64,000 bases of DNA from Candidatus Calditenuaceae archaeon HR02 (GCA_002898395.1 BEHE01000004.1:32001-96000); one strand, 5' to 3'. Positions 18,093-59,301 are shown, counted from the first letter of the stretch. Notes: a model not told the origin generated them from the sequence alone. Numbers and translations: made by a program.

Positions 18093-18530
18093 TTACTGTT
18101 AAATCATTAATAATAAGCATGAAGGGAGGAGGGGGTTTCGTCTGTACTTCTTCTCTCTCTTGCCGATACCTCTTTGTAAGATCTTACAAATCTTCCACCA
18201 GCTCTTCTTTGTAATACTGTATCATCTTTATTGAGAGTTCGATGAGGTATCTCTCTTATCAGTGGACTCGTCTTTATTCCAATTTCCGCAAGTAGCTGTC
18301 TGATGTGTTCTAGTGATTCAATGTTAGTGTTTGCGTAGGCTGGCATCAATCCCACCCCATCACCATCGAAGAAGCTCCTGGAGAATCTTACATTCGCCTC
18401 AGAGTCCATCTATTCCGCCACTATCTTGTAGATAATATAGCGCGGTTAGTGTGGCGTACACTCTGTAAAGACCGTCCCTGAATCTTATCCATGGCCTTAG
18501 TCCCACCCTCCTCAGAGTCCCAGCTCACGA
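18093..18530 (-). mobile_element. Decayed LAGLIDADG endonuclease element, copy 1 (3' of tRNA-Ser GGA)
   Basis: Fragment SFFDGDGVGLMPAYANTNIESLEHIRQLLAEIGI is homologous to 58600-58992; DNA similarity continues to the tRNA-proximal end; frameshifts and deletions; distal boundary approximate. Confidence 0.8.
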
Positions 18531-18726
18531 AGCCAGCCGTCTAAACCTAGATCAAAATTGGATGTCGTGCGACAAGGGTTACTGGTTTTCCAAGGGGTGG
18601 AGCTATAGGCTGAGTGGAGTAGATGTATGGTGTTATTATTGGACGCGCAATCCTTGGACGATCCTAGTGTCATACACACTCCGTAGCTGCCGAAGCCTCA
18701 GTCCTCATAAGCCCATAGTCTCTCTT

Positions 18727-18771
18727 CAGCTTCTTATCCTCTTGACTTTTTCCTTAGTTTTGTGTTGCATC
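18727..18771 (-). repeat. 45-bp repeat, 38/45 identical to 40119-40163
   Basis: GATGCAACACAAAACTAAGGAAAAAGTCAAGAGGATAAGAAGCTG vs GATGCAACACAAAACAAAGAAACAAGTCAAAAAGATAGGAGGCTG (manual alignment). Confidence 0.7.
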
Positions 18772-18796
18772 CTCACCCTGATGGTCCGTGAGTGAA

Positions 18797-19081
18797 AGTG
18801 ATGTTTTTGTGTTCTATGTCCATCCCGAAGACTATCAGAGGTTCCTCGACTACGTGGGAATATCTATAACTAGGAATAATGAGGTATCTCATCGATTTCT
18901 CCATAAAGGTGATGTGGCGTTATATGGGGTGAGGTAGGAGAAATGAAGGTGTGGTGGGAGATTTGTGAGATTTTGAAGAAAAGTATCGGCAGTAATATGA
19001 TGAAGCGCAGACGAAAACCCGCCCCCCTCCCCCCTTATCCCCTCATACCTACCACATTGGAAAATCCATAATTATTAAAAT
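18797..19081 (+). mobile_element. Decayed LAGLIDADG element, copy 2 (3' of tRNA-Gly)
   Basis: 18836-19070 is nearly identical to 59058-59291 (one indel and one substitution by eye); encodes DVFVFYVHPEDYQRFLDYVGISITRN. Confidence 0.85.
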
Positions 19082-19174
19082 TGCGGCGGGCGGGATTTGA
19101 ACCCGCGATCCCCAGCGTGGCAGGCTTCCACGCAGTCCGATGCTTGGTGTCCTACCAGACTAGACTACCGCCGC
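19082..19174 (-). tRNA. tRNA-Gly(GCC) with 19-nt intron at 29/30 (19126-19144)
   Basis: GCGGCGG/CCGCCGC acceptor stem, discriminator A; removing AGCATCGGACTGCGTGGAA restores CCAGC-CTGCCAC-GCTGG; T arm GCGGG-TTCAAAT-CCCGC. Confidence 0.93.
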
Positions 19175-19199
19175 TTCAAGGGTTCTGGTGCAACGCCTG

Positions 19200-19207
19200 T
19201 ATAAAAA
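19200..19207 (-). promoter_or_regulatory. Probable TATA box of tRNA-Gly
   Basis: TTTTTATA on the minus strand, ~26-33 nt upstream of the tRNA 5' end. Confidence 0.55.
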
Positions 19208-19718
19208 TTCTAGAGATGGGCTGAACATATCGGCCTCTCCTCGCCCATATCTATTTGGGCCGGTGGTCTCTTCCACGGAATTGACTGTGGCTGTTGAGGT
19301 GGAAGTGTCTGGCGGTTTTCGGCGAGAAGGTGGCTTTGAGGGGTTAGCTTTAGGGTTGGTGGGGGCGAGGTTTTCGGGTTGATTGGTCCTGATGGTGCTG
19401 GTAAGACGACATGCTTCCGGAGCCTCGCTACGATTTTGAAGCCAGGTGGGGGTAGTGCAAGGATATTCGGCCTAGATGAGGGGGGCGCGAAGGGGGAGGC
19501 CGCGATCTCATACCTTCCAGAAGAGGCGGGAGTGTATAGAGTCTGAGCGACGAAGACTACATCAGATTCTTGGCGAGGGTCTACAACAGGTTTGAAGGAA
19601 AGGCGCTACGCGAGGATGAGAAGATCTCCGGTCTCGGAGAGTCATTCTCCAATAGCTCGAGGATGCCGGTTTAGTAGAAAATATTTACCGTCGCCAGCAT
19701 CTACGTGGGACGGGACTC

Positions 19719-21314
19719 TTGCTGTGGGAGATTTTAGCGGCCGTAGCGCTGTCTTGGACTAGGATTGTTACGGCTCTAGCCATATCCGTCTTCGCCGCTA
19801 TAATTGTTGGAATATATTCGGGAATATATAGGCGGGTTGATAGGATTGCGATCCCTATCCTCGATGTTCTCCAGAGCGTGCCAATACTGGGTTTCTTCCC
19901 ACTGGCAGTCTATGTGCTGGCAAGTGCTGTACCAGTACTCGGCTATGAGCTTGCATCGATCTTCCTCTTATATACTTGCACATTCTGGAATCTGGCTTTC
20001 GCGGTCTATGAGGGTGCTCGATCTATTCCGCATTCCATGATCGAGGTTGCGGAGCTCAGCAAGCTGTCACTAAGAGATAGGTTTGGGAAAATCTACGTGC
20101 CGGCCGTTTTCCCCAAAATTGTAGACCAGTTGCCCGCGAGTTTAGCCAATGCATTCTACTTCCTAGCAGCCAGCGAGGTAATCGCTCTCGGAGAAGCCGA
20201 GGTAAGGGTTGCGGGTATAGGGACGCTCATCCTAAGATATCTGGAGAAGGGAAACTATGCAGGCATCGCGATCGGTCTACTTGCAACGGCACTAAGCATT
20301 ATCGCAGCATACCTTTTCATTCTGATGCCCCTCATATCCTATTCAGACAGATACAGGTTCGACATAGCTCAGCCCCCCGCAGTACAGAAGACACCTATGA
20401 TCATGGGGCTCTACTCCCGTATTAAGTCCATCCAAGCACCCTTGAGGATGGAGCCGAGGCGCGTTGCTGGGTTTACTCACCGCGTTTTCCCAATCCAGTT
20501 CGTCAACATAAGGTATGTGGGAAGCGACATTAAGCGGCTTATATTCATAGTCTTTATTGTTGTTCTGCTTATTTTCGCCGGGCCTGGGATCTATGCAAAC
20601 ATAGGCGATATGTGGGCTGCGGTATCCAGCGTGGCTAGTGCTGGTTTGCGGCTGGGATTGTTTAGCATCGGGGAGGCACTCGCCTACTCCTTCTCCCGCG
20701 TATTAGTGTGCTTGGCACTTATGCTTGCAATAAGCCTACCAATCGCTTACGTCGTTTCAGAAAAACCAGGCCTCAGGAATACCATCCTTCCAGTCCTTCA
20801 GATCATCGCTTCCCTCCCCTCACCGCTAATATTCCCAATCATTTCGGGCTTCTTTGTGGGCGGTACCTTTTCCCGAGAACTTGGGGCGGTACTACTAATG
20901 TCGCTGGGCTCCGTATGGTATGTTTTTTACTCAACATTAAGCGGCTTCAACAAAGTTCACGGAGAATATCGAGAGCTTGCTAGGCTGTATAGACTCTCGG
21001 GGATCAACAAGTTCAGGTATATTTACCTCCCATTCGCGACACCATCGATAGTGACGGGTTTGATAACTGCAACGGGCGGTGCATGGAACACTGTGATAGT
21101 TGCGGAAAGGCTTGGTGAGGGTGGGAGAATATTTGAGGTCCAGACGCCGGGTCTAGGTAAGCTAATGTCCACGCTAGCAGAAATAGCAGACACCTCGGGC
21201 CTAGTGTTCACAGTCATGGTGATGACAGCCTTCGTGATACTCGTTAACAGACTATTATGGCGAAACCTATATGATTATTCTATAAGAGCGCTGAGGATTC
21301 ATGAGCAACTCTGA
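19719..21314 (+). CDS. NitT/TauT-family ABC transporter permease with two TM domains
   Basis: ILDVLQSVPILGF, FWNLAFAVY, second repeat LQIIASLP..GGAWNTVIVAE. Confidence 0.88.
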   Translation: MLWEILAAVALSWTRIVTALAISVFAAIIVGIYSGIYRRVDRIAIPILDVLQSVPILGFFPLAVYVLASAVPVLGYELASIFLLYTCTFWNLAFAVYEGARSIPHSMIEVAELSKLSLRDRFGKIYVPAVFPKIVDQLPASLANAFYFLAASEVIALGEAEVRVAGIGTLILRYLEKGNYAGIAIGLLATALSIIAAYLFILMPLISYSDRYRFDIAQPPAVQKTPMIMGLYSRIKSIQAPLRMEPRRVAGFTHRVFPIQFVNIRYVGSDIKRLIFIVFIVVLLIFAGPGIYANIGDMWAAVSSVASAGLRLGLFSIGEALAYSFSRVLVCLALMLAISLPIAYVVSEKPGLRNTILPVLQIIASLPSPLIFPIISGFFVGGTFSRELGAVLLMSLGSVWYVFYSTLSGFNKVHGEYRELARLYRLSGINKFRYIYLPFATPSIVTGLITATGGAWNTVIVAERLGEGGRIFEVQTPGLGKLMSTLAEIADTSGLVFTVMVMTAFVILVNRLLWRNLYDYSIRALRIHEQL

Positions 21315-22068
21315 AATACTGATGGAGCTTAGGAATGTGACACACGGGTATAGCCTGAGGTCTGGGTCGACACTCAAGGTAATAGAGAACCTGAATATCC
21401 AGGTGAGGTATGGAGAGTTTTTGGGGATAGTGGGGCCGAGTGGGTGCGGAAAGAGCACCATTCTCCGGATCATGGCTGGGCTCGTCAAACCCCTCTCAGG
21501 AGTCGTTATATTTCGGGGAGAAGTGTTGAACGGCACTACGCCACGCATATCGCTGATGCATCAGGTCCCAACACTCCTACCCTGGCTAACAGTCAGAGAG
21601 AACATATATCTGGCCCTCATGTCTAGGAAGGATCTGACTGAGCGTGCGAAGCAGTTAAAAGTGTCTGAACTTCTTGAGCTTGTTGAACTTAGTGGTTACG
21701 AATCTGCATATCCATATGAGCTGAGCGGGGGAATGAGGCAGAGGGTTGCGCTCGCCCGAGCACTTGTTACAGACCCCGACCTCCTCCTCTTGGACGAACC
21801 ATTCAGCAACCTCGACCCACTCACCTCGCTCAGCTTAATTCGCGAGTTAGAGGGCATGTGGTTTGACACGACCCTCCCGCCGATCTCTATAGTGATGGTA
21901 TCGCATAACATAGAGGAGGTTGTCATGCTTGCTGACAGAGTGGTTGTTCTGGGGGGGCGTCCTGCAAAGATTTTGGCAGAGGTCCCCATCGAGCTCTCAC
22001 GGCCAAGGAACAAGAAGTCAGAGGAATTCTATAGGCTCGTCGATGAGTTATTCTCTCTGATTAGCTAA
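21301..22068 (+). CDS. NitT/TauT-family ABC transporter ATP-binding protein
   Basis: GPSGCGKST, LLPWLTVRENI, LSGGMRQ, LLLDEPFSNLD, VSHNIEE. Confidence 0.92.
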   Translation: MSNSEILMELRNVTHGYSLRSGSTLKVIENLNIQVRYGEFLGIVGPSGCGKSTILRIMAGLVKPLSGVVIFRGEVLNGTTPRISLMHQVPTLLPWLTVRENIYLALMSRKDLTERAKQLKVSELLELVELSGYESAYPYELSGGMRQRVALARALVTDPDLLLLDEPFSNLDPLTSLSLIRELEGMWFDTTLPPISIVMVSHNIEEVVMLADRVVVLGGRPAKILAEVPIELSRPRNKKSEEFYRLVDELFSLIS

Positions 22069-22564
22069 CCTTTACCCCCCGCCTAACCTTGAATAATCCC
22101 TCCTCACCATTATATTCTAGATAACCGGTCGTAACTAGCCAGTCGAGGAGGAAAGACTTCGCCATGGTGATGCTCTCTGGGCTGTCGTCGCATAGGTTGA
22201 GGTCTCTGCAGATCTGCTCGACGGATATGGCGTCCTTCTTTTGGACCATATAGCGGATTATTGATTTGAAGGGTTCAGCGTTTTTTGCCAGCTCGCGGAG
22301 CATTCTTATCTTCCCAGAATGCCTACGCCTCGAGAAGGATCGGCCCAACTCGGTTAATATTGCATCACCCTCATCAACCTTCACCAGGCCTAGGGACTCG
22401 CAAGCCTCAAGAATTTCCAATACAACCCCCGACTCCATTCCAGCCTCACTTACAAGCGTGGCTACATCTGCCCTACCATTCAGCAGTTCTAGGACCTCAA
22501 CCAACCCCGAAACCATTGCGGGAGTAACACGGATGGGGCATCTCGGCCCCTGTTGGTCCAACAC
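22061..22564 (-). CDS. Stand-alone AAA-associated C-terminal domain protein (winged-helix-like)
   Basis: SGLVEVL..GRADV..LEACESLGLVKVDEGDAILTELGRSF..LLDWLVTTGYLEY resembles the domain normally fused C-terminally to this ABC ATPase family. Confidence 0.7.
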   Translation of the reverse strand: MLDQQGPRCPIRVTPAMVSGLVEVLELLNGRADVATLVSEAGMESGVVLEILEACESLGLVKVDEGDAILTELGRSFSRRRHSGKIRMLRELAKNAEPFKSIIRYMVQKKDAISVEQICRDLNLCDDSPESITMAKSFLLDWLVTTGYLEYNGEEGLFKVRRGVKVS

Positions 22565-22658
22565 CCTATCACTTGTTTTATCTCGATTCTCATATATAAC
22601 TATGCAGATTTATATTTGCCAGATATTCCGGAAAAAGAGAGATAGGGACCAATTTCCT

Positions 22659-23816
22659 TCAGAGACTTAGTACCATATCTAATATTTTTTCAACAGGCCT
22701 AACATTGGCTGTAAAACTAGAGTATCTATTTATGGCCGCGGCCTCTATCTCGTCTAAAGCCTTCTTAACAGATGCTGAGAGGCTCTCAAGGCTTAAATCC
22801 TCCTCTTTGAGGATTACAGCCACCCCTTTTCCGGCGAGGGATTTTGCATTTGATTCTTGCTCAGTCTGCCTCGGTATAGGGATTAAGACGAGTCTACAGT
22901 TGAATGCTAAGGCCTTGGCTGCGAGTGTCTGGCCTGCCCGGGTCACTACAACGTCTGAGGCTGCCAGAAGCTCATACTCGTTTTCATACCACTCCACAAA
23001 TCTTAGACCTTCTCTTGACTGGTCGCCGACAGCGCCCGTCATTATGGCTTGAAAGTCTTTTTGTCGATGGAGGAGGGGCATCATGAGGTCTCTCAAGCGT
23101 ATACGGTCTGGCTGTGGGCCTGTAGGTATTACCGCTATTAGCGGGATTGAGGGGTCGAATCCGAGCTTCTCTTTGAGCCTGTCGCGAGGGGGGTAGTCAC
23201 TCGGTAGCTTCTCAAGTATCGGGCCCACAAACTCTGCACGAGGCTCATCCACCTTACGCATCCTTAGGTTTTCTGTTGAGATTGTGAGGGGGTGTGGGTA
23301 GTCGGCTATTAGGAGCCTGTGGGAGAGGCTCCACACAACTGTGAACGAGTTTATGATGTCTTCGAAAAAGGCGGCCAGTCTGGGGAGACGGTCTCTCTGA
23401 AGCAGGACGTTGTACTGATTGAGGATGAGAGTGCTTGGGATGCCGGTTAGGCGTGAGGCCAGGACCGCTGAGGCTCTGGTGTCTGAGACCACAACCTCGG
23501 CCCCAGACTCTTCGATGATTCTAGCCTCGATGAGTGTTTGAGCAGCAACCTTCATAGGCAGGAAGACGTTGCTCAACAGTGTTGCCTTAATGCTCACCGC
23601 GCCCCGCGCGTCACGCCCATAGTCGACTGCGGGCACCTTCAAGACGCTTAGACCCACCCTCTCAAAATAGTCGACTGCGTCTCCATAGGTAGATACTGTG
23701 ACATCATGCCCCCTCTTGATAGCCTCGAGTATTATTGGCCGACACCTAGATGCGTGCCCCAGCCCTAATCCGCATACACTGAAGTGGATCCGCGCCATGT
23801 AACCGGCTCCCTGCAA
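22659..23816 (-). CDS. GT-B glycosyltransferase, GT28/MurG-like
   Basis: CGLGLGHASR, VVVSD, VGPI, VVTRAG, PIPRQTEQESNA. Confidence 0.85.
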   Translation of the reverse strand: MQGAGYMARIHFSVCGLGLGHASRCRPIILEAIKRGHDVTVSTYGDAVDYFERVGLSVLKVPAVDYGRDARGAVSIKATLLSNVFLPMKVAAQTLIEARIIEESGAEVVVSDTRASAVLASRLTGIPSTLILNQYNVLLQRDRLPRLAAFFEDIINSFTVVWSLSHRLLIADYPHPLTISTENLRMRKVDEPRAEFVGPILEKLPSDYPPRDRLKEKLGFDPSIPLIAVIPTGPQPDRIRLRDLMMPLLHRQKDFQAIMTGAVGDQSREGLRFVEWYENEYELLAASDVVVTRAGQTLAAKALAFNCRLVLIPIPRQTEQESNAKSLAGKGVAVILKEEDLSLESLSASVKKALDEIEAAAINRYSSFTANVRPVEKILDMVLSL

Positions 23817-23823
23817 TTGTGTT

Positions 23824-24438
23824 TTAAGTACGTGGCGTCTTGAGCATTATCCTCTTAACAATCCCACGCGGGGACTCTTCTGCGAAGATATCAGCATTAA
23901 ACCTGTAGATCTTCACGTCCCTCCTCAGCCAGTCCGTAGGCCTCAACCCGGCTTTCAGGCAGAGGTGCATAAGGAACTCCTCAGCATCCCAGCCATACTC
24001 CACTGGGACTTGGGGGAGTAGGATGCCTGCCCCCTCGTCAGCTTCTATGATCAGGCCGTCAAGACCTATCCTGATCTGCTCAGGGAGAGAGGACCTCGGC
24101 TCAGAAATAATCTCCTCAGGCTCTGTGAGAAGTGTCAGTTCGACAACCACTCTATCTGCCTCGGACGGGGTTAGGGGTGGGAATCGCGGATCGTAGAAAG
24201 CCGCAAGCCTGGCTGCTGTGATGGTGTCGTCGACGATGTTGGAGCGGGGCAGTGGCAGGCCCATGCAACCCCTCAACTCCTTTTTCTCGTGTTGATAGAG
24301 TGTAACGAAGACACCCCTACGGATGGCTGGGCTCCTAAGAGAGCTCTCCAAATGCAACTCTTTCTCAAGCCCGAGATCCTTCATGATTGCCGACCTAGCC
24401 AGCCTGACAAGCCCCACCCCAACCTCTTCACTTATCAT
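23824..24438 (-). CDS. AMMECR1-domain protein
   Basis: RGVFVTL..LRGCMG, AAFYDPRFPPL, GILLPQVPVEYGW, CLKAG. Confidence 0.92.
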   Translation of the reverse strand: MISEEVGVGLVRLARSAIMKDLGLEKELHLESSLRSPAIRRGVFVTLYQHEKKELRGCMGLPLPRSNIVDDTITAARLAAFYDPRFPPLTPSEADRVVVELTLLTEPEEIISEPRSSLPEQIRIGLDGLIIEADEGAGILLPQVPVEYGWDAEEFLMHLCLKAGLRPTDWLRRDVKIYRFNADIFAEESPRGIVKRIMLKTPRT

Positions 24439-24465
24439 TCCAACAACATATGTGAAAACATTCTT

Positions 24466-24942
24466 TTATCCCTTGCTCAAATCTTCTACCAGCTTCCTCA
24501 CCCTCTCCAGAGTCCTTGTGATGTTTTTCCAGTGCCCTCCAACCCAGTATTCCTGGCCGCAAGACCCACACTTCCATCTCTTGTTAGAAGACGGCTGGAG
24601 TTGTCCATTGCAGAGGGAGCAGAGCCTAAACTTCACGGCTAAGAAATCGTCGTAAGATATTCCGTACTCGCCCATTAGGTGGATGGCGATGTGCGAGAGC
24701 TGGTTCTCAGTCCCGCTTAGCGGCAGTAGGATGGATTGACCTCCCATAGACAATATTCGCTTATAGAGCTCGGTGTCTGAGGTGAGGACTATCCTCCCCT
24801 CTTCGTACGCCTTCTGAACAATCTCGTCATCTTCTCGCGGATAGTAGATGGTGTCGTATCCCAGCATCCTAAGCCATCTCGTGAGTTTACCGTGCATCGA
24901 GTCTGTCAGGAATTTAGGTTCCCGCGATGCTCCCCTTCTCAA
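24466..24942 (-). CDS. Mut7-C RNase domain protein (PIN-like plus Zn ribbon)
   Basis: FLTDSMHGKLTRWLRMLGYDT, RIVLTSD, CSLCNG..CGSCGQEYWVGGHW. Confidence 0.88.
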   Translation of the reverse strand: MRRGASREPKFLTDSMHGKLTRWLRMLGYDTIYYPREDDEIVQKAYEEGRIVLTSDTELYKRILSMGGQSILLPLSGTENQLSHIAIHLMGEYGISYDDFLAVKFRLCSLCNGQLQPSSNKRWKCGSCGQEYWVGGHWKNITRTLERVRKLVEDLSKG

Positions 24943-25492
24943 GTTCTAGCCGACACTCCTCGCAGAGATACTGGTCATCAATCCTCACAAGCATGTCACT
25001 CCACTCACCGCACGAGTCACAGTATCCCTCGAGGTAGGACTCCCTCTTCACGATGGGCCCACCGCTGAGCTTGAACTGCTCCTTGATGATGGATATGATA
25101 TCGGGAGTAATCTTTAGGACGTCTTTCAGGCTTATAATCCCTTGTACATTCCCCTTGTAGCTTACTATCAGCCTGCTGATTCCAAGCCTGGTCATCAGCC
25201 TGACTGCGTCTTCGATCGTCGCGGAGGGGTCAACTGTTATGAGGGGTGACGACATAATCTCCTCAAGCTTCACCTCGCTGGGCCTTTTATCCTGCGCAAC
25301 AACCTTCTCCACAAGGTCCCTTTTAGTCACTATGCCCACTGGACGCCCATCTTTCCTCACCAATATGCTGCTTATCCTGTACCTAGCCATCATCTCGGCA
25401 GCGACGTTGGCTGTACTCTCCGCGCTCAACTCTATGACTGGGCTCGTCATTACTTCCCTGACCGTTATCTCCTCGCTTAGGAATGGGCCCAT
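24914..25492 (-). CDS. CBS-pair protein with C-terminal zinc ribbon
   Basis: VREVMTSPV, GIVTKRD, IMSSPLITV; GYCDSCG..LCEEC. Confidence 0.88.
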   Translation of the reverse strand: MGPFLSEEITVREVMTSPVIELSAESTANVAAEMMARYRISSILVRKDGRPVGIVTKRDLVEKVVAQDKRPSEVKLEEIMSSPLITVDPSATIEDAVRLMTRLGISRLIVSYKGNVQGIISLKDVLKITPDIISIIKEQFKLSGGPIVKRESYLEGYCDSCGEWSDMLVRIDDQYLCEECRLELEKGSIAGT

Positions 25493-39699: not shown

Positions 39700-39767
39700 C
39701 CACTTGAAGAGCGAGAAGAACCATTATTTATCTTAATTAGAAGATAGTGTGTTGGACTGTTATAGAT

Positions 39768-39853
39768 GCCGGGGTGGCAGAGTGGATAATGCGCAGGCCT
39801 TGAGAGCCTGTGGCCCATTTCGGGCCGCGAGGGTTCGAATCCCTCCCCCGGCG
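39768..39853 (+). tRNA. tRNA-Ser(TGA)
   Basis: Identical to 18007-18092 except the wobble base (CT-TGA-GA). Confidence 0.96.
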
Positions 39854-40023
39854 TTACTGTTAAATCATTAATAATAAGCATGAAGGGAGGGGGTGAGTTT
39901 TCGTCTGCGCTTCATCATATTTCTGCCGATGCTTTTCTTCAGAATCTCACAAATCTTCCACCAGTCCTTCATTTCTCCTATCTCATCCCTGTGATGCCGT
40001 ATCGTCTGTGTTGAGAGTTCGAT
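39854..40023 (-). mobile_element. Decayed LAGLIDADG element, copy 3 (3'-terminal portion only; 3' of tRNA-Ser TGA)
   Basis: First 37 bp identical to 18093-18129; the rest is the reverse complement of a sequence closely similar to 59113-59255. Confidence 0.8.
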
Positions 40024-40118
40024 ACCCCCGACGCTAGTAGTGGTGCGTATGGTAGGGGGTTTAAATACTGCTCAAAACACCAACAACACATAAACACAGA
40101 ACAGATTATGATGTCCTA

Positions 40119-40163
40119 GATGCAACACAAAACAAAGAAACAAGTCAAAAAGATAGGAGGCTG
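40119..40163 (+). repeat. 45-bp repeat matching 18727-18771 (inverted)
   Basis: 38/45 identity by manual alignment. Confidence 0.7.
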
Positions 40164-52155: not shown

Positions 52156-52171
52156 GCAGTTAAGCAGCCCA

Positions 52172-53152
52172 TTATTTCACTCCTTTTGCTTCTTTAATTT
52201 TCTTTATTAGGGCTGGGACTATCTTGAAGAGGTCGTCAACCACGCCGTAGTGGGCTACGTTGAATATTGGTGCATTAGGGTCCTTGTTTACTGCAATTAT
52301 CAACTGGGAGTTCATCATACCCATAATGTGCTGGAATGCCCCGCTGATGCCGAGAGCGATATAGAGCCTTGGTTTGACCGTCTTGCCTGATGAGCCGACC
52401 TGTCTGTCAGGTGGGAGCCAACCCTTATCCACTATTGGCCTTGAACACGCAACTACGCCACCCAGTAGCCTAGCCAGCTCCTCTGCGAGTGGAATGTTTG
52501 TCTTTTCACCTATTCCGCGCCCTATAGCAACTATGATATCTGCAGACTCTATAGACACTCCAGACTCGGCAGGAACAACTAAGCCCCTAACCCTTACTCT
52601 CGCCTTGCCGCCCAGCTCCGGCGGAGCCATCTTCACGACAACGCCCCTTCTTGCTGTCTTGCTCGGACGAAATGCACCTGCCCTCACAGTCAAGATATAG
52701 CCCTCCGCCACTCTAGCACTGACCCTAGCGTTGAGCTTCCCTCCATACATCTGGCGTGTGGCGTAGAGACGTCCATTCGCGAACTCTACGTCGATGCAGT
52801 CTGTGATCAACGGGAATCCCAACTCTACAGCGAGTCTGGGAGCGAGGTCCATTCCCAGCGAGGTGTGCCCCACTACCAAGACCCTAGGCCGCCTCTCCCT
52901 GAGAATGTGGGATACTACCAGTTGATAATTCTCAGAGTGATATTGTGAGAGCCTCTCATCCTCTGTCAGTAATACAGTGTCGCAATATTCAGATAGTTGC
53001 TCTGCAAGCTTTTCAACCTCGGAGCCTAGGACTAGTGCAGCAACTTTCAAGCCCGTCTTCTCGGCAAGCTTTCTCCCCGCTGCGAGCGCCTCGAACGTTA
53101 TCTCGCGGGCCTCTCCACCTCTCTGCTCCGCCAGAACTATAATCTCGCTCAA
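52172..53152 (-). CDS. etfA: Electron transfer flavoprotein alpha subunit
   Basis: GRGIG, SRPIVD, QVGSSGKTV, GISGAFQH, NKDPNAPIF. Confidence 0.95.
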   Translation of the reverse strand: MSEIIVLAEQRGGEAREITFEALAAGRKLAEKTGLKVAALVLGSEVEKLAEQLSEYCDTVLLTEDERLSQYHSENYQLVVSHILRERRPRVLVVGHTSLGMDLAPRLAVELGFPLITDCIDVEFANGRLYATRQMYGGKLNARVSARVAEGYILTVRAGAFRPSKTARRGVVVKMAPPELGGKARVRVRGLVVPAESGVSIESADIIVAIGRGIGEKTNIPLAEELARLLGGVVACSRPIVDKGWLPPDRQVGSSGKTVKPRLYIALGISGAFQHIMGMMNSQLIIAVNKDPNAPIFNVAHYGVVDDLFKIVPALIKKIKEAKGVK

Positions 53153-53935
53153 CTACAACAACCCCCTCGCCCTTAAAAGCTCGATTATCTTCGAAGCCAC
53201 CTCCTCCGGGCTTCCGCCAACAAACTCGATACGTCTCTCAACCCGCGGAGCATATAGCCCCTCGACACGTATCCAAGGCTCACCAACCTCCTCCAAACTC
53301 AGGCCGAGATCGTCGAGAGACATGACCTTGATCTCCCTCCTCATTGCCATCCTAATCCCGAGCACCGAGACATATCTCAGCTCAACAATACCTGTCTGGA
53401 CCGTTATCACCGCCGGCAAGTCAAGCTCTACGACCTCTTCAACACCTCCTTCCAACTCCCTATGGACGACAGCACGGCCATCAACTATCTCAATCTTCTT
53501 TGCGAGGGTGGCGTGTGGGAGGTTAAGGTATTGGGCTATGGCTGGCCCCGTTATGGCGTAGCCATCGTCGTTTGCCTGAACACCTGTGAGTATCAGGTCG
53601 AATGACGTCTTTTTTGCGGCCGCCGAGAGGACTTTAGCGACCGTGAAGGGGTCGTATAGGTTAACTCTAGGGTCTCCTATTCTGATGGCCTTGTCGGCCC
53701 CCTTGGCAAGGCACCTCCTCAAGACTCTGTCAGCCTCTTCGCCGCCGATAGAAACCGCGGTCACACTCCCACCATGCTTCTCCCTCAACACGAGTGCGAC
53801 CTCCAATGCATAGTCATCCCACTCATTTATGTCATAACTCAGGCCTCGTCTCTCTATCTCCCTCCCACTGCTATCAACCTTCAGCTCCGCAGAGGATACA
53901 TCGGGGACGTACTTCACACACACAATAATATCCAA
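53153..53935 (-). CDS. etfB: Electron transfer flavoprotein beta subunit
   Basis: IIVCVKYVPD, INEWDDYALE, GADKAI, GVQAND; start placed at TTG 53935. Confidence 0.94.
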   Translation of the reverse strand: MDIIVCVKYVPDVSSAELKVDSSGREIERRGLSYDINEWDDYALEVALVLREKHGGSVTAVSIGGEEADRVLRRCLAKGADKAIRIGDPRVNLYDPFTVAKVLSAAAKKTSFDLILTGVQANDDGYAITGPAIAQYLNLPHATLAKKIEIVDGRAVVHRELEGGVEEVVELDLPAVITVQTGIVELRYVSVLGIRMAMRREIKVMSLDDLGLSLEEVGEPWIRVEGLYAPRVERRIEFVGGSPEEVASKIIELLRARGLL

Positions 53936-54028
53936 ACCGAGCCACAACTCCGGCACGGCTACTATCTGTGCCAACAGACCCATATATTGCCAACCGATAT
54001 AAACCTTAGATTATGGAAGGCTTGGACA

Positions 54029-55111
54029 CTATCCCATCGTAACCGTGACCCCCATGGTCTCAAGCTTTTCGAGGAAGAGGCGGGTCTCTATGATGGCTTC
54101 GGGAGGGAATACGCCCCTCTCCACTATCTGGTCTTGTAGGATTAGGTGTGCGCCCAGTGCGGCTGGAGCTGTGGTGAGTTTTCGCATCCTGTTTACCGAT
54201 GCGTAGCTGACCCTCTTCTCACCCCTTTCGATAACTACTTTCACTCCGCTCAAAGCCACCCCACCAGTCCTGAACAAGTCTTCTATTTTGTTGATAAACT
54301 TGGAGAGCTTCTCGACCCTCCACCTGGTAGACGTCAATCCTAGTCTGACAAACAGCTTCGCAAGATCGGTCTGCCACTCCGGTATAAGACAGCCGCGAAT
54401 AGTCACCCGCTTCAAGACCCTTAGGTTGCGGGATATTGTTAATGGCTCTGGATGCCCAACGTAGTATAGTTTCAGCTTACCAACAACCGGAAACTCAAAT
54501 GTCACCCTTGAAGAGCCCGCCCTAACCATCGTTATACTCCCGTCGAGAAACATGGGCACTTCGCCTGTCATGGCGTGGAAAAGATGCATAATTACGGCCA
54601 GCCCTCTTGAGTCCGCGGCTGAGCCGAACCATCCTATATCGACAGAGTCGGCCTCACCTCCAAGCTCCTCAACACCCATCTTGGCCAGTATGTTGGATAG
54701 ACCCGGCGTCCATCCAAGTCCAGTTATGTATGTGACCCCGTTCTTCATGGCCTGGGCGGAAAGCCCCAAGATCTGCTCAGCCGCGTCGTGGTCGTCACAC
54801 AGGTCTATCCCGCTCTTGCCAGCAACAATTAGCGTCTCCGCAATCGCAAAGCCATGCTTATAGAAGGGGCCTATAGCATTGACTACCACGTCATACCCCT
54901 TAACAATATTGGCCAACTTATCCCGAGATGACGCATCAACCCTGACCACCCCAACCTCCCCAATATCCCTGAGCGAATTAGCTATACTCTGGGCTTTTGC
55001 CGTGTTGATATCACCAATATCGACCTGAACCCCCAGCTTCACTAACTCCTCCACCACCCCACTCCCCATATCACCAGCACCCCCTAGAACAAGGGCTGAG
55101 CCAATTGTCAC
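54029..55111 (-). CDS. Saccharopine dehydrogenase-like NAD(P)-dependent oxidoreductase
   Basis: LGGAGDMG, VNAIGPFY, DLCDD, GLGWTPGLSN, GHPEP, GVFPPE. Confidence 0.85.
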   Translation of the reverse strand: MTIGSALVLGGAGDMGSGVVEELVKLGVQVDIGDINTAKAQSIANSLRDIGEVGVVRVDASSRDKLANIVKGYDVVVNAIGPFYKHGFAIAETLIVAGKSGIDLCDDHDAAEQILGLSAQAMKNGVTYITGLGWTPGLSNILAKMGVEELGGEADSVDIGWFGSAADSRGLAVIMHLFHAMTGEVPMFLDGSITMVRAGSSRVTFEFPVVGKLKLYYVGHPEPLTISRNLRVLKRVTIRGCLIPEWQTDLAKLFVRLGLTSTRWRVEKLSKFINKIEDLFRTGGVALSGVKVVIERGEKRVSYASVNRMRKLTTAPAALGAHLILQDQIVERGVFPPEAIIETRLFLEKLETMGVTVTMG

Positions 55112-55199
55112 GGGATAATCACCGGGTCTAAATTACTTACAATTTTTATAAATCTTTAATGGGACATTATTAATATACCAGTTAAATAATAAATAGTAG

Positions 55200-56981
55200 T
55201 TGGTGGGTTTCTTGGCAAGGTTTTCAGGCGGGGAGATACTGGTCGAGTGCCTCTTGAAGGAAGGTGTGGTGTATGTTTTCGGGATTCCTGGAGACAGGTG
55301 CATTCCCTTCTACGATGCAATCTACAGGATAGGCTCCAAGCGCGGTATGAAGTTTGTGATGACGCGGCATGAGCAGGCGGCCGCGCACATGGCAGATGCC
55401 TATTACCGAATCACTGGGAAAGTTGCCGTCTGCACCGGGACTGTCGGTCCAGGGGCGGCGGACCTGGTCCCCGGTGTCTATGCCGCTTTTGCCGACAGTA
55501 TACCGATGGTCATAATAACCGCCCAAAACCAAAGCTTCAGAATTTACCCCGAGCACGGAAGTATGCAATCGCTTGACCAGCACGAGCTGTTCAGGCCAAT
55601 CACTAAGTGGAGCGCCGTGATAAACCACATATCGAGGATTCCCGAACTGGTTCAGAGGGCTTTTAGAGTTGCGCTAACTGGAAGGCCAGGGCCAGTCCAC
55701 CTAGACATCCCATCTGATGTCGTGTTTGGCGAGATAGAGATTGAGCCGGAGAAGAGCATCCACCCACCCCACATGTATAGGCCCACCCACCCTGTACAGG
55801 CCGATACCACTCTCGTTAAAGAGGCCGCCATGATGCTAGCCCACGCCAAGCTTCCACTGATACATGCCGGCGCTGGTGTTCTCAGGGGTATGGCGTCTGA
55901 AGAGCTAAAAGCTCTTGCTGAGCTCTTGAAGGCTCCTGTAGTGACGAGTCTCGCGGGTAGGGGTGCGGTTCCAGAGGACTCGGAATATTGCCTAATACCC
56001 GGTAGTCCGGGAGCGCTTGCTGCACAGTCGATGGCAGACGTCGTGTTGCATGTGGGAGGTAAGCTGGGGGACACCGATATGTGGGGGCGCTCTCCCCCCT
56101 GGGGGGAGGTTGGGGTACAGAGGTGGATACAGATAGACATTGACCCCGAGATGATAGGCTTGAACAGGCCTGTTGATCTCGCTCTCGTCGGAGACGCTAA
56201 AGCTGTTCTGCGTCAGCTGATTGGGGAGCTTCGGAGTATGCGCGTCGAGCCTGTGAGAGACCTGTCGCAGTTTAGGAGGCTGACCGAGGAGTGGGAGAGG
56301 GGATTCCTTGAGATAGCGCTTACGAGTTCCCATCCTATACATCCGCTTAGAGTTGTCTACGAAGCTAGGAGATTCTTTCCACGCGACGCGGTCAGTGTAG
56401 TAGACGGAGGAAACACAGCAGTCTGGGCACACTATCTAAACAGGATCTACGAGCCCAACACCTTCCTATGGGCGGCCGACTCGGGCCATCTCGGCTCAGG
56501 CCTCCCATACGCGATAGCAGCAAAAATCGCTAGGCCGGAGAGACCTGTCTATCTCTTAACCGGTGACGGCGCTTTCATGCTCAATGTGCAGGAGCTCGAG
56601 ACGGCGGCGAGGCTCAAAGCAGAGATAGTAGCAATAGTCTTCAACGATGCCCAATGGGGCATGATAAAGGGTGCGCAGAAACTATACTTCGGCTCCAGAT
56701 ACATCGGTGTAGACTTTACAGACGTGCGACACGACCTTATCGCCGAGGCCATGGGTTGCATGGGCATACGTGTCGAGAGCGCAGATGAGCTGAGAGAGGC
56801 GCTTGAGGAAGCCGCAACTGCAGGGAAGCCCGCCGTCGTGGATGTCAGGGTTAATAGTGAGGCCAACCTCACTCCGCCGGACCTTGAGACGCTTGCCGCC
56901 ATCTGGCTGGAGGGCTGCGAGCCGCCGGAGAGGGAGTATAAAGAAGAAGAGATAGAGACCGAGGCACAGGCGCCACTCTAA
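55200..56981 (+). CDS. ThDP-dependent enzyme (acetolactate synthase / 2-hydroxyacyl-CoA lyase superfamily)
   Basis: RHEQAAAHMAD, GPG, GRPGPVHLDIP, GDGAF..FND ThDP motif. Confidence 0.88.
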   Translation: MVGFLARFSGGEILVECLLKEGVVYVFGIPGDRCIPFYDAIYRIGSKRGMKFVMTRHEQAAAHMADAYYRITGKVAVCTGTVGPGAADLVPGVYAAFADSIPMVIITAQNQSFRIYPEHGSMQSLDQHELFRPITKWSAVINHISRIPELVQRAFRVALTGRPGPVHLDIPSDVVFGEIEIEPEKSIHPPHMYRPTHPVQADTTLVKEAAMMLAHAKLPLIHAGAGVLRGMASEELKALAELLKAPVVTSLAGRGAVPEDSEYCLIPGSPGALAAQSMADVVLHVGGKLGDTDMWGRSPPWGEVGVQRWIQIDIDPEMIGLNRPVDLALVGDAKAVLRQLIGELRSMRVEPVRDLSQFRRLTEEWERGFLEIALTSSHPIHPLRVVYEARRFFPRDAVSVVDGGNTAVWAHYLNRIYEPNTFLWAADSGHLGSGLPYAIAAKIARPERPVYLLTGDGAFMLNVQELETAARLKAEIVAIVFNDAQWGMIKGAQKLYFGSRYIGVDFTDVRHDLIAEAMGCMGIRVESADELREALEEAATAGKPAVVDVRVNSEANLTPPDLETLAAIWLEGCEPPEREYKEEEIETEAQAPL

Positions 56982-58018
56982 TACTTCACGAGCACCTTTA
57001 AGGCCTTCTTTTTCTCAAAAAGTTCAAATCCCATAGGAACCTTCTCCAAGTCGACCCTATGTGATATTATTCTGCTTGGATCAATCTTTCCACTGGCTAT
57101 AAGTCTCGTTAGTCTCTCTCCGCTCCTTATTGGGTTGCCGATGGAGAAGATAACTCTCTTCTCGGTCAGCCACAGTCCACCAACCGGAATATTGTATTCT
57201 TGGAGATGAAATCCTACAACCGAGACAGTGCCTTTCTTCCTCACCATGTCGATGGCCGTGCGTAGCGGTTCTACCGTCTTTCCTACGGCCTCTACAACGA
57301 TATCAGCTCCTCGCCCATCAGTCATATTCCGAACCTCTTCGGCGGGGTCTACCTCTGATGCGTTAATAGTAGTGAAGCCGAGAGACCTAGCCATCTCTAA
57401 CCTCTCTCTTACCATGTCGATAGCTATCACGTGAGAGGCCCCGTAGGTGGCCGCACACATGCCGCTTAACAATCCGATAGGGCCGCATCCCAAAATAGCT
57501 ACTATGTCGCCCGGCTCCATACCAGCGTTAATAATTGCGTCGTGTCCTGTCGGAAGGGCATCACTCACCATAACTAGCTTCTCGTCCGGAACGCCTTCCG
57601 GAGCCTTAATCATCACGGTGTCGGCGTATGGAACCCTGACAAGATCTGCGAAAGCACCGTCTAGACTCTCACCATAGGCAGGGCCCATGCCGAAAATATT
57701 CGTATTTTCACACTGGGTATGTAACTGTCTTCGACAAAACCAGCAACTCCCATCAGCAATCCAAGCGGATACTATTACCCTCTCACCCTCCCTGAAGCGC
57801 TTAACGTCTTTACCAACCTTCTCCACCACACCCATAAACTCATGCCCTAAAACCCCTCCCGGCACAACTGTCAGCGCTCCAGTGTAGACGTGCAGGTCGG
57901 TTCCGCAGATAGCTGCCGCCGTAGGCCTCACTAATGCGTCTTCATTAAGCCTAATGGTTGGCTCCGGCGCCTCCTCAACCCTCAGGTCAAAGGGGCCATA
58001 CCACTTAACAGCCCGCAT
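56978..58018 (-). CDS. Zn-dependent MDR alcohol dehydrogenase
   Basis: CGTDLH, GHEFMG, DGSCWFC..C structural Zn site, GCGPIG. Confidence 0.92.
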   Translation of the reverse strand: MRAVKWYGPFDLRVEEAPEPTIRLNEDALVRPTAAAICGTDLHVYTGALTVVPGGVLGHEFMGVVEKVGKDVKRFREGERVIVSAWIADGSCWFCRRQLHTQCENTNIFGMGPAYGESLDGAFADLVRVPYADTVMIKAPEGVPDEKLVMVSDALPTGHDAIINAGMEPGDIVAILGCGPIGLLSGMCAATYGASHVIAIDMVRERLEMARSLGFTTINASEVDPAEEVRNMTDGRGADIVVEAVGKTVEPLRTAIDMVRKKGTVSVVGFHLQEYNIPVGGLWLTEKRVIFSIGNPIRSGERLTRLIASGKIDPSRIISHRVDLEKVPMGFELFEKKKALKVLVKY

Positions 58019-58027
58019 AGAGACACC

Positions 58028-58486
58028 TCAAGCAAGAAACTCGGTGGGCACTTTCTTGATAGCGTTGACGAACGCGGAGGAGGCCGCCGCATTAGAGAGA
58101 AGCTTGGCGACATTACCCTTAACCTTCAGCTGCCCCGTCATTACCGCCACTGTGGGGCTGAGCCTACCTAGTGCCACTTTTTTCATGACATCATAGGAGC
58201 CCATTATCACTATGGGAGCCTCCTTCTCATCCGCCTTCGACAATATCTCAAAACCGCGACACTTCCCGTGATAGAGGTCAAGCCAAACGGCTACCTGCTC
58301 CGTCTTAAAATGCTCTTTAACCGGTGGCGGCAGGCTAGTTATCGCAAGGATAATAGGATCCTCCCAACCCCGGGCAGCCGACTCATACTCTTTATCACTG
58401 TTCAGAATGTCAACAAACGCCTGAACCCACTCCCTAGAACCGAAAATATAACGGCCACTCACATGGTTAGAGAAAGGTTGATCCAA
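58028..58486 (-). CDS. SCP2 (sterol/lipid carrier) domain protein
   Basis: FGSREW..LN..Y..AA.GW, LDLYHGKC, AVMTGQLKVKGN. Confidence 0.85.
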   Translation of the reverse strand: MDQPFSNHVSGRYIFGSREWVQAFVDILNSDKEYESAARGWEDPIILAITSLPPPVKEHFKTEQVAVWLDLYHGKCRGFEILSKADEKEAPIVIMGSYDVMKKVALGRLSPTVAVMTGQLKVKGNVAKLLSNAAASSAFVNAIKKVPTEFLA

Positions 58487-58599
58487 ATATAAGCTTTAAC
58501 TCTAAAACTGATATTCTACCCCATAACAAGCTGTGCAACATAGAGGAGTTCAGCATCGCAGCCTACAGCAAATGACCGTCTTCTTCAAGGGCATACGCA

Positions 58600-59301
58600 A
58601 TGCTTCACAAACTACAATTTCACTTAAGCAATTCAGACCTTATGTTGCGTGTCAGGGATCGAGAGTTTGCGGAGGCATTTGCTGAGGCTCTAAGGAGGAT
58701 AGGGTTAAGACCATCGATAATATTCAGGGACGGCCGTTACATAGTGAACGCAACATCAACCGAGCTATATTATCTACTAGATAGTGGCGAGTGGCGGAAA
58801 TACATGGACTCCGACCCCGAGGCTAGACTGGGATTCCTCGGGGGCTTCTTGGACGGTGACGGAATAGGGTTGATGCCAGCCTACGCGAACACCAATGTCG
58901 AATTACTTGAATATATCAGACAGCTATTTGCAGAGCTTGGAATAAGGGCGAGTCCGCTGATGCTAATGTCTAAGAAGGGTAGCAAACGATGAGATTCGAG
59001 GAGGCAAATATGGATAGAAAGGACGTTTATGTAATGTAGATCCGCCCCGAGGATTACCAGAGGTTCCTCGACTACGTGGGAATATCTATAACTAGGAATA
59101 ATGAGGTATCTCATCGATTTCTCCATAAAGGTGATGTGGCGTTATATGGGGTGAGGTAGGAGAAATGAAGGTGTGGTGGGAGATTTGTGAGATTTTGAAG
59201 AAAAGTATCGGCAGTAATATGATGAAGCGCAGACGAAAACCCGCCCCCTCCCCCCTTATCCCCTCATACCTACCACATTGAAAAATCCATAGTTTTTAAA
59301 T
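58600..59301 (+). pseudogene. Decayed LAGLIDADG endonuclease element, copy 4 (longest; 3' of tRNA-Lys)
   Basis: ORF 58600-58992 LRVRDREFAEAF..FLGGFLDGDG..ANTNVELLEYIRQLFAELGI; continues past stop/frameshift as KDVYVM*IRPEDYQRFLDYVGISITR; no first LAGLIDADG helix seen. Confidence 0.85.

Follow-up and report, generated by a model that had tools for sequence, protein, structure and literature searches.

Textbook homing endonucleases act on one site and one allele. I-DmoI is encoded inside an intron of the 23S rRNA and has one allelic target. The 3' ends of tRNA genes are the classic att sites of tyrosine-recombinase elements. The yeast Ty3 and Dictyostelium TRE retrotransposons lie at a fixed distance and orientation relative to tRNA genes, to which they are directed by RNA polymerase III factors in an RNA-mediated process. 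SegB, which is encoded by T4-like phages, belongs to the GIY-YIG family.

We analyzed a window of 64,000 nucleotides from Candidatus Calditenuaceae archaeon HR02 (GCA_002898395.1, BEHE01000004.1:32001-96000), together with the rest of the genome and its relatives. The genes described below resemble those of I-DmoI and other archaeal monomeric LAGLIDADG enzymes, including the endonuclease domain of the intein PI-PfuI, in encoding a single chain with two motifs and a conserved Asp/Glu pair. Unlike I-DmoI, they are free-standing, N-terminally extended and located behind dozens of different tRNA genes. Free-standing phage genes of the SegB type are likewise intron-less, intergenic and placed beside conserved genes, and their spread depends on break repair ("intronless homing"), the route that we propose here; SegB acts in a tRNA gene region, namely, a tRNA gene cluster (see PMC13096335). 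However, SegB is present at a single locus in each phage genome and passes from one genome to another during co-infection, whereas the present family occupies most tRNA genes of a cellular chromosome; the junction with the tRNA is exact here, and no exact tRNA-end junction is described for SegB. As in Ty3 and TRE, a mobile family uses tRNA genes generally as safe landing sites, but in this case it is an archaeal DNA endonuclease gene without a reverse transcriptase. Tyrosine-recombinase integrative elements share the address, the tRNA 3' end; the elements found here have neither an integrase nor att direct repeats and comprise about 1.4 kb with one open reading frame (ORF). The initial annotation of the window knew of no described element with this architecture. 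Our literature search likewise found no account of archaeal LAGLIDADG genes docked at tRNAs in the main texts of openly accessible papers, including PMC3082918, PMC6125680 and PMC13619312; PMC6563490 is indexed with 0 occurrences of "homing endonuclease."

Relics behind the tRNA genes of the window

ARAGORN and Rfam, each independently, detected exactly four tRNA genes in the window:

18007-18092, plus strand: tRNA-Ser(GGA) (ARAGORN; Rfam RF00005, 61.1 bits), target gene of copy 1
19082-19174, minus strand: tRNA with a noncanonical intron, probably Gly(GCC) (Rfam, 50.8 bits; no isotype from ARAGORN)
39767-39854, plus strand: tRNA-Ser(TGA) (ARAGORN and Rfam; sequence read)
59301-59377, minus strand: tRNA-Lys(TTT) (ARAGORN; Rfam, 67.4 bits), target gene of copy 4

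The Ser(GGA) and Ser(TGA) genes differ by a single base, which lies in the anticodon. For the intron-bearing tRNA, a deletion scan that removed 12 to 25 nt 5' of the anticodon yielded Gly-GCC in 147 variants, by far the commonest outcome, in agreement with the Gly(GCC) call of the initial annotation.

All four genes carry a copy of one LAGLIDADG family, which we call family A. Each copy starts at the first base past the tRNA and is 5' truncated and frame broken; as placed by tblastn with the best genomic copy as the query, each reads toward the tRNA 3' end:

18093-18530, minus strand: family-A remnant 1 (tblastn HSPs at 18102-18524, amino acids 97 to 294 of the reference copy)
18782-19081, plus strand: family-A remnant 2 (tblastn 18782-19047, amino acids 207 to 293 plus tail)
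39855-40023, minus strand: family-A remnant 3 (tblastn 39889-40023, amino acids 242 to 286)
58621-59300, plus strand: family-A remnant 4 (tblastn 58621-59263, amino acids 77 to 291 plus tail)

The tail of remnant 1 abuts the 3' end of tRNA-Ser(GGA), beginning directly after the tRNA, and its frame-broken body gave a weak match to Pfam LAGLIDADG_3 at 18107-18409 (E = 0.022). Remnant 2 abuts the 3' end of the probable Gly-GCC gene and is 94.1% identical in DNA to the copy at tRNA-Lys over 286 nt (blastn). Only the last ~45 codons and the tail are left of remnant 3. Remnant 4, which abuts the 3' end of tRNA-Lys, is the longest copy in the window; it contains a stop at 58990-58992 and frameshifts and shares 84% DNA identity with a near-full copy on contig C25. 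The ORF at 58600-58992, which contains LGFLGGFLDGDG, exceeded the Pfam cut-off for LAGLIDADG_3 (E = 7.4e-5; 23.4 bits versus 22.5). The same tblastn search found no family-A copy in the window beyond these four. The window copies are pseudogenes, 5' truncated and with stops or frameshifts, and no full element is present among them.

The initial annotation had described a homologous sequence behind every tRNA of the window, and tblastn, ARAGORN and Rfam confirmed this for 4/4 genes. Its copy coordinates proved correct to about 20 bp against the tblastn placement, and the coding strand pointed toward the tRNA 3' end in all four copies, as it had stated. The LAGLIDADG core that it named is the ORF that passed the Pfam cut-off, and its C-terminal extension was found in the translations.

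Docking in this genome and its relatives

We scored a LAGLIDADG locus as docked when it was convergent with a tRNA 3' end and within -10 to 200 bp of it. Across the whole genome, 27 of 37 loci were docked, on 27 of the 44 tRNAs, where about 0.1 docked loci would be expected by chance (44 tRNAs × 211 bp × 1/2 for orientation/1.73 Mb × 37). Tails were present on 2 additional tRNAs (blastn), and short tail remnants were seen by eye on at least 4 further tRNAs counted as unoccupied. Of the 44 tRNA genes in this genome, at least 27, and probably 33, have been visited. The docked genes include a second, paralogous family, family B, with two intact genes, and both families have their junction at the first bases past the tRNA.

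The remaining 10 of the 37 loci had no adjacent detected tRNA. The initial annotation had noticed no copy away from a tRNA, which holds within the window but not genome-wide. Copies scattered without tRNA bias, the outcome that would have spoken against its view, were not found, and its docking observation is real and understated. By eye, some of the 10 nondocked loci lie beside tRNA fragments, a tRNA interrupted where its contig ends, or a tRNA-like sequence that went undetected. Across the loci of this genome and its relatives, tRNA-like fragments were seen in L032, L043 and C6, by eye only.

Among relatives, 28 of 60 matches holding the C terminus were docked (26 by ARAGORN and 2 more by Rfam), and 32 loci had no adjacent detected tRNA. 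The Rfam search of loci lacking an ARAGORN tRNA added 2 cut tRNAs among 20 loci; at 16 further relatives' loci, it detected no tRNA next to the copies. In one congener, G002, 5/5 full-length copies were docked, and in another, G001, 8 copies met the tRNA flank within its first bases. Match numbers per genome ranged from 2 to 61 among the 7 congeners. In a related clade (family f2 genomes), 0/10 copies were tRNA linked. In named Caldarchaeales and Nitrososphaeria records, 18 of 62 copies were docked, and every one of the 18 ranked within the top 37 matches; docking was absent (0/25) from the 25 weakest, which came largely from DPANN archaea, Halobacteria and bacteria.

Protein and ends of the element

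Family A encodes a protein with a helix-turn-helix (HTH) and a two-motif LAGLIDADG region (Pfam LAGLIDADG_3), and its nearest solved relative is I-DmoI. Intact relatives scored 50 to 62 bits against LAGLIDADG_3. The intact genes include one of 294 amino acids at G000:C29:518-1402 and copies in G002. A profile of 14 family members matched I-DmoI residues 12 to 171, nearly the whole length, with an E value of 1.3e-10, and the PI-PfuI chain 1dq3 with an E value of 2.7e-6. D106 and E201 (first-row numbering) were invariant in the alignment and aligned to D21 and E117 of I-DmoI; the family-A translations have D in both LAGLIDADG motifs, but the genes are broken. Homology to the solved I-DmoI predicts that these proteins are monomeric two-motif LAGLIDADG homing endonucleases. 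Compared to I-DmoI, they carry an N-terminal extension of 85 to 200 residues with HTH-like segments, in which the matches to the transposase-type domains HTH_21 and HTH_32 were weak and subthreshold. LAGLIDADG was the sole confident domain; neither a transposase fold or motif nor an integrase domain was detected in the element ORFs scanned.

The full element measures about 1 to 1.45 kb and consists of a promoter region and one ORF. Its predicted product has one or two N-terminal HTH modules, an I-DmoI-type monomeric two-motif LAGLIDADG nuclease and a short Pro/Lys-rich tail. The ORF ends 0 to 100 bp from the last tRNA base, with transcription toward the tRNA, and the T-rich end of the element replaces the natural tRNA trailer. 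An intact full-length ORF, which the initial annotation had suggested seeking, was found for no family-A member, either in the genome, whose assembly is 93.65% complete, or among the database proteins searched, where the 191-amino-acid stop-free part as the query matched 2 proteins only, both apparently from this genome's own contigs, C25 and C4. In a DNA search, family A was absent from the 7 congeners and present in this genome only.

At the end away from the tRNA, several copies join a repeat, which we call repeat X:

40021-40163, minus strand: repeat X, ~140 bp, containing TATTTAAA, with 34 blastn matches in the genome
18727-18771, plus strand: partial repeat X at the left end of remnant 2 (blastn, 84% over 45 nt)

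Of the 22 family-A loci, 10 have repeat X directly at their left end, as does one further, blastn-level copy, and the junctions fall at three or more points. The left end of remnant 3 is fused to X, at a junction common to 5 other copies, so that truncated derivatives with one identical X-tail junction occur at several loci (6 places). Repeat X also occurs by itself, in front of host genes and of a different repeated ORF; when a 280-amino-acid repeated ORF was scanned against Pfam, nothing exceeded 0.06. The distal ends of the elements are ragged. The C-terminal end is present in every one of the 22 family-A loci that bear a tail, and their N-terminal start varies from amino acid 1 to amino acid 243. 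One of three copies tested for terminal inverted repeats, a G001 copy, had a weak 25-nt pair, 76% complementary, near both ends, formed by G-rich versus C-rich low-complexity sequence; the other two had none.

Movement among tRNA loci

Comparison with congeners, a check suggested in the initial annotation, revealed empty orthologous sites. At tRNA-His, G002 carries an insert, and G006 and G003 have an empty site (spacer of ~41 to 42 bp); at tRNA-Arg(TCT), an insert is present in G002 and absent from G004 (~36 to 44 bp between flank and tRNA). In both comparisons, the insert measures ~1.4 kb, lies between the host gene and the tRNA, and contains a single, stand-alone LAGLIDADG ORF that is not in an intron or intein, which upholds the claim of an intron-less element. 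At tRNA-Lys, the present genome carries family A, G001 carries family B and G005 retains a family-B stump; neither family was detected at this locus in G002, G003, G006 and G007. Insertions have also occurred in series: on contig C11, an N-terminal fragment of family A is followed by family B and then tRNA-Trp, and on contigs C29 and C15, an A tail is followed by B and then tRNA-His. Among public sequencing runs, one DNA run contained 0.32 of the sampled words, and none of RNA was listed; on G000:C29:1-6400, contigs of the DNA run gave short low-depth pieces, none bridging or skipping an element.

Copies cluster by genome, not by tRNA identity. On a quick tree of 23 rows (SH-aLRT support only), genome labels changed 10 times versus a shuffled mean of 16.0, a value reached in 0/1,000 shuffles, and tRNA labels changed 19 times versus a mean of 19.9 (304/1,000 shuffles). 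One clade united the G001 copies located at tRNAs for Thr, Pro, Ser and Asn. Genome clustering could also arise from gene conversion among resident copies. Movement between tRNA loci, as the initial annotation had proposed, is supported by this clustering together with the differing occupancy of the same locus among congeners.

The four window sequences are dead, decayed relics of a free-standing homing-endonuclease gene. We consider it reasonably probable that the family to which they belong has the 3' boundary of tRNA genes as its target and moves from one tRNA locus to another by a putative route of cleavage and repair. Alternatively, the copies could have spread passively, by duplication of a tRNA with its flank or by ordinary gene conversion, the LAGLIDADG protein having no active part. 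The Ser(GGA) and Ser(TGA) genes, one base apart, share the same tail, the tails of Leu(AAG) and Leu(GAG) are identical over 60/60 nt, and concerted evolution would also yield clustering by genome. We nevertheless regard passive spread as unlikely, given the near-identical copies behind unrelated tRNAs (the 94% between probable Gly-GCC and Lys-TTT; the single G001 clade), the clean empty sites in congeners, the different families at one orthologous locus, and the invariant catalytic residues. Moreover, dN/dS in intact copies was 0.14 to 0.36 in 22/22 pairs with dS below 1.4 (66 pairs in total). Such purifying selection fits a host function and an active selfish enzyme equally well, and it would also be expected of a domesticated HTH-LAGLIDADG protein that the host retains because it binds the ends of tRNA genes, where it might serve in termination or insulation or protect the att sites of tRNA genes from viruses and plasmids that integrate. 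The position conserved across Caldarchaeales and Nitrososphaerales records, and the T-runs on both strands beside the tRNA, supplied by the element end, would suit that role. Domestication is nonetheless improbable: match numbers vary from 2 to 61 among congeners, most copies in this genome are pseudogenes, the same tRNA locus may be occupied, empty or filled by another family in a sister species, and lineage-to-tRNA fidelity is absent.

Transposition of an element with defined ends, either repeat X or inverted repeats, instead of homology-based break repair, could account for the recurrent X at left ends, the X-tail chimeras, the inverted pair of the G001 copy and the subthreshold HTH_21 and HTH_32 matches. 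This is quite unlikely, as the pair is of low complexity where found and absent from the other copies tested, X also stands alone, LAGLIDADG is the only confident domain, and the distal ends are ragged. Remnants of viruses or plasmids that used tRNA 3' ends as att sites and carried the LAGLIDADG gene as cargo would explain the address and the tRNA fragments near some copies, but they would be expected to leave a direct repeat. In 27 rows from 26 docked loci, the longest same-orientation match to the tRNA 3' end on the far side was 0 to 11 nt in 26 rows, similar to the reverse-complement control (0 to 10 nt); the exception was a second tRNA-like copy in L035. With no att-like repeat, no integrase and a one-ORF insert of merely ~1.4 kb, an integrase-type element is largely refuted and, in our judgment, very improbable.

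According to our model of a homing endonuclease that targets tRNA ends, the enzyme would recognize the boundary between the GC-rich T-arm/acceptor 3' strand and the AT-rich trailer of an unoccupied tRNA gene and cut there. The break would be repaired from an occupied locus, the 3' part of the tRNA serving as the proximal homology. The last ~28 nt are near identical across many different tRNAs here, so that the repair homology proposed in the initial annotation does exist. Copying would start on the tRNA side, enter the element and often halt early, which would generate 5'-truncated copies with ragged distal junctions. Insertion would destroy the site, and the usual life cycle of homing endonucleases (invasion, fixation, decay and loss) would follow; family A would have burst through this genome and is now entirely dead. 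Family B retains intact members. LAGLIDADG enzymes normally read ~20 specific base pairs; dozens of tRNA targets would need unusual tolerance or a target located mostly in the shared T-arm/acceptor.

A bolder reading is that enzyme breaks at tRNA ends act as a general engine of archaeal tRNA gene remodelling, carrying the endonuclease gene to most tRNA loci as a "homing transposon" and giving rise to tRNA half-genes, 3'-end duplications and paralogs with one-base anticodon switches. It is prompted by an arrangement on contig C28, where an intact LAGLIDADG gene separates a tRNA-Gly-like 5' half from a 3' fragment ~3.1 kb away, by the duplicated tRNA 3' end in L035, and by the near-identical Ser-GGA and Ser-TGA genes with identical docked tails. 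We offer it as a long shot; if true, it would explain, in a concrete and testable way, how disrupted and split tRNA genes arise.

The docked genes point to a different homing-endonuclease lifestyle, in which the apparent target is the 3' boundary of tRNA genes in general, and relatives across Caldarchaeales and Nitrososphaerales share the docking habit. Such a family would be the DNA-level counterpart of the eukaryotic tRNA-targeting retrotransposons. If confirmed, it would offer a set of thermostable LAGLIDADG enzymes that have diverged in nature and have related targets, explain the repeated flanks at which assemblies of these archaea break beside tRNA genes, and possibly account for fragmentary and duplicated tRNA genes.

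tRNA genes of the window and the sequences docked to them

ARAGORN and Rfam each called four tRNA genes in the window, and the two sets were the same.

tRNA genes of the window (called by ARAGORN and Rfam)
18007-18092, +, tRNA-Ser(GGA)
19082-19174, -, tRNA, probably Gly-GCC with a short intron (called by Rfam; given a 4-base "anticodon" and no isotype by ARAGORN)
39767-39854, +, tRNA-Ser(TGA)
59301-59377, -, tRNA-Lys(TTT)

The sequences homologous among these four loci start right after the last tRNA base in each case. Translated towards the tRNA, they are pieces of one protein, spanning residues 97-294, 207-293, 242-286, and 77-291 of the best copy in the genome. The longest piece (58600-58992) carries LGFLGGFLDGDG, and its Pfam LAGLIDADG_3 score is above threshold. 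The claim of the initial annotation that each tRNA is followed directly by a homologous sequence, with its coding strand pointing towards the tRNA, was thus borne out at all four genes. All four copies are pseudogenes with stops and frameshifts.

When 12 to 25 nt just 5' of the anticodon were deleted from the 19082-19174 gene, 147 variants were called as Gly-GCC, far more than gave any other result. The name Gly(GCC), assigned earlier, is therefore probably right, and the intron probably lies at a noncanonical position, 5' of the anticodon. The genes for tRNA-Ser(GGA) and tRNA-Ser(TGA) are a single base apart, at the first anticodon position, and have the docked tail (the element end at the tRNA side) in common, suggesting that one arose recently from the other by duplication or conversion, with a change of anticodon.

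Distribution in the genome and the encoded protein

The window copies belong to family A, one of two paralogous LAGLIDADG gene families. The closest relatives at the protein level carry source names indicative of Caldarchaeales ("Aigarchaeota"). We searched the assembly that includes the window (G000; 1.73 Mb, 36 contigs, 93.65% complete) by tblastn, using one family-A and three family-B proteins as queries. A locus was scored as docked when the distance from its last aligned codon to the 3' end of a convergent tRNA was -10 to 200 bp. This search revealed 37 LAGLIDADG loci, 27 of them docked, compared to about 0.1 expected by chance according to our own arithmetic. The docked loci take up 27 of the 44 tRNA genes that were left after removal of three dubious ARAGORN calls (two with introns of 574 nt and 974 nt, and one antisense to tRNA-Gly). 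Since two further tRNAs have tails at the blastn level and at least four "unoccupied" ones (contig C8 Arg-CCG, C18 Val-GAC, C6:52748 Glu-TTC, and C15 Ala-CGC) have trailers that, by eye, open with the same tail sequence, about 33 of the 44 genes seem to have been visited.

The initial annotation had noticed no copy away from a tRNA. The strong tRNA bias held across the genome, but 10 of the 37 loci are undocked. One of these abuts a tRNA truncated by a contig end, and another was displaced outward by a later insertion. A near-full family-B copy has a tRNA-like sequence about 135 bp beyond it (C6, about 91750-91850, near the 5S rRNA at C6:91520-91638), in which a T arm and acceptor are recognizable by eye and which was called by neither ARAGORN nor Rfam. 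For the remaining undocked loci, no tRNA was found. On C28, a tRNA 3' fragment adjoins an extra blastn-level copy that is not counted in the 37. C28 also carries a tRNA-Gly(TCC)-like 5' half that ends after the anticodon loop (about 8789-8832, +) and, on the same strand about 3.1 kb downstream, the matching 3' fragment (11950-11975, +); the interval contains a complete tRNA-Gly(TCC) (11802-11877, -) as well as an intact LAGLIDADG gene. The two pieces come either from a duplicate that was disrupted or from a gene that is split.

Many contigs terminate within these elements, indicating that the repeats break the assembly. An assembly artefact, raised earlier as a possible source of the repeated flanks, was ruled out because the copies are 68 to 94% identical, their flanks are unique, and they recur in independent assemblies.

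Family A comprises 22 loci with a tail and one N-terminal fragment in this genome. The search for an intact full-length reading frame, proposed in the initial annotation, found none for family A in G000: the best copy (C25:17476-18366) is interrupted by one stop. A protein database search with a stop-free stretch of 191 aa matched only fragments from the same genome, and family-A DNA was found in none of seven congeners (G001 to G007). Family B shares about 30% identity with family A, and its two intact genes and several fragments show the same docking, at other tRNAs.

Intact family-B genes of G000
C29:518-1402, 294 aa
C28:8966-9835, 290 aa

In an alignment of 14 members, two LAGLIDADG motifs come after an HTH-like N-terminal region about 85 aa long. 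The profile matched I-DmoI (E 1.3e-10, spanning I-DmoI residues 12-171), and the positions corresponding to I-DmoI D21 and E117 (D106 and E201 of the first row) are invariant. Longer forms in G002 have about 70 to 120 extra N-terminal residues with weak, sub-threshold matches to HTH_21 and HTH_32. Five G002 copies are intact (L022, L027, L031, L033, and L037). Among intact copies, dN/dS was 0.14 to 0.36 (22 unsaturated pairs of 66); judged from these sequences, the intact copies are under purifying selection.

Junctions, empty loci, and movement

The boundary at the tRNA side is exact: in families A and B, and in eight copies from G001, the conserved element end starts with the bases that immediately follow the tRNA. 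Similarity reaches into the tRNA for at least about 25 nt because the T arm and acceptor strand are nearly alike in many different tRNAs here; for example, 27 of the last 28 nt are identical between Asn-GTT and Arg-CCT. T-runs are present on both strands of the element end, indicating that it replaces the tRNA trailer, and it probably terminates both transcripts. In some copies the ORF extends up to the tRNA or through it antisense. One G002 LAGLIDADG ORF (L031:866-2026, +) is not terminated ahead of the tRNA-His gene and continues antisense through it.

The far-side ends are ragged, and in G001 similarity opens about 40 to 70 bp upstream of the ORF. In family A, the C-terminal end is kept in 22 of 22 loci, while the N-terminal start varies from aa 1 to aa 243. 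Beside a docked copy in G006 (L035, contig C3 of that genome), 35 nt of a tRNA-Val-like 3' end are present twice, at positions 1904 and 2131, 227 bp apart. A dispersed repeat of about 140 bp (repeat X) adjoins 10 of the 22 family-A loci, and one more copy, at their left end, with at least three junction points; one chimera of repeat X and tail is present at six places. In G000, blastn gave 34 matches to repeat X, which contains the TATA-like TATTTAAA.

Repeat X in the window (blastn)
18727-18771, +, partial
40021-40163, -

Various host genes and a repeated 280-aa ORF also have repeat X upstream of them. Possible identities of repeat X are a mobile MITE resembling a promoter, the homology arm at the distal side, or a component of the element itself. 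The ORF family (about 280 aa) lies about 350 bp downstream of repeat X and starts MMRFYCDVHRK (L154:258-1097, -, on C7 of G000, with similar copies on C13, C6, and C18); some copies are broken. It had no Pfam match better than E 0.06 and may encode a protein of an unknown mobile element.

Comparison of orthologous tRNA loci, suggested in the initial annotation, uncovered empty alleles. The tRNA-His locus holds a copy in G002, while G006 and G003 have only about 41 to 42 bp between the upstream region of the neighbouring gene and the tRNA, a size difference of about 1.37 to 1.41 kb. Likewise, tRNA-Arg(TCT) is occupied in G002, and G004 has about 36 to 44 bp at the same place. The tRNA-Lys locus of the window carries family A in G000, family B in G001, and a family-B stump in G005. 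For G002, G003, G006, and G007, the search detected no LAGLIDADG homolog at this locus. In its place, G002 carries a gene for a small membrane protein (L080:425-985, +), a very hydrophobic ORF of 186 codons stop to stop, orthologous to window positions ~58500-58600, where G000 has a family-A remnant. The neighbourhood was remodelled, and not by insertion alone.

The seven congeners have 2 to 61 matches per genome. A quick maximum-likelihood tree built from 63 copies groups them by genome, with the G001 copies at Thr, Pro, Ser, and Asn tRNAs in one clade. For the 23 rows carrying both labels, genome required 10 changes compared to a shuffled mean of 16.0 (0 of 1,000 shuffles as low), and tRNA anticodon required 19 compared to 19.9 (304 of 1,000). 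Two nested arrangements, a family-A N-terminal fragment followed by family B and tRNA-Trp, and a family-A tail followed by family B and tRNA-His, suggest that newer insertions come in at the tRNA end and older ones are displaced outward.

Range among relatives and proposed mechanism

Across 30 related genomes, 28 of 60 matches including the C-terminus were docked (convergent tRNA within 360 bp); by our own tally these fall as 27 of 46, 1 of 4, and 0 of 10 in genome families f1, f4, and f2. The f2 copies form a well-supported sister-family clade of intact homologs from the AT-rich genomes G019, G022, and G025, with no tRNA neighbour in 10 of 10 (L010, L011, L013-L015, L018, L019, L053, L058, and L068). 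Among named records, 18 of 62 loci were docked, all within the 37 best matches, which come from Caldarchaeales/Aigarchaeota, Nitrososphaerales/"Thaumarchaeota," one Archaeoglobaceae record, and one Aenigmatarchaeota record. None of the 25 weakest (mostly DPANN archaea, Halobacteria, and bacteria) was docked, and these serve as an internal control for docking.

We consider it fairly probable, from the sequences compared here, that these elements are free-standing homing endonucleases that target the tRNA 3' boundary and spread among tRNA loci. According to this model, the enzyme would cut the naked boundary of tRNA end and trailer, and break repair would copy the gene from an occupied locus, with the tRNA 3' part common to tRNAs as proximal homology and a distal join that would be illegitimate or by short homology. 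Such copying from the tRNA side would account for the fixed orientation and the 5' truncations. Alternatively, retention of the tail could reflect selection for a tRNA trailer instead of repair polarity, and the grouping by genome could reflect gene conversion. An integrase-type element was rejected, as the far-side att-type repeat of the tRNA 3' end is missing (match of at most 11 nt in 26 of 27 rows, as in the control). No integrase domain was found in the element ORFs scanned, and terminal inverted repeats were not convincing, with one weak 25-nt pair (76% complementary) in one of three copies.

In the open-access full texts covered, we found no account of LAGLIDADG genes that dock at the 3' ends of tRNA genes in archaea. 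Together, these analyses establish a gene family with a tRNA address, a defined orientation, and an exact proximal junction, which is gained and lost at tRNA loci, spreads within genomes, and is under selection.
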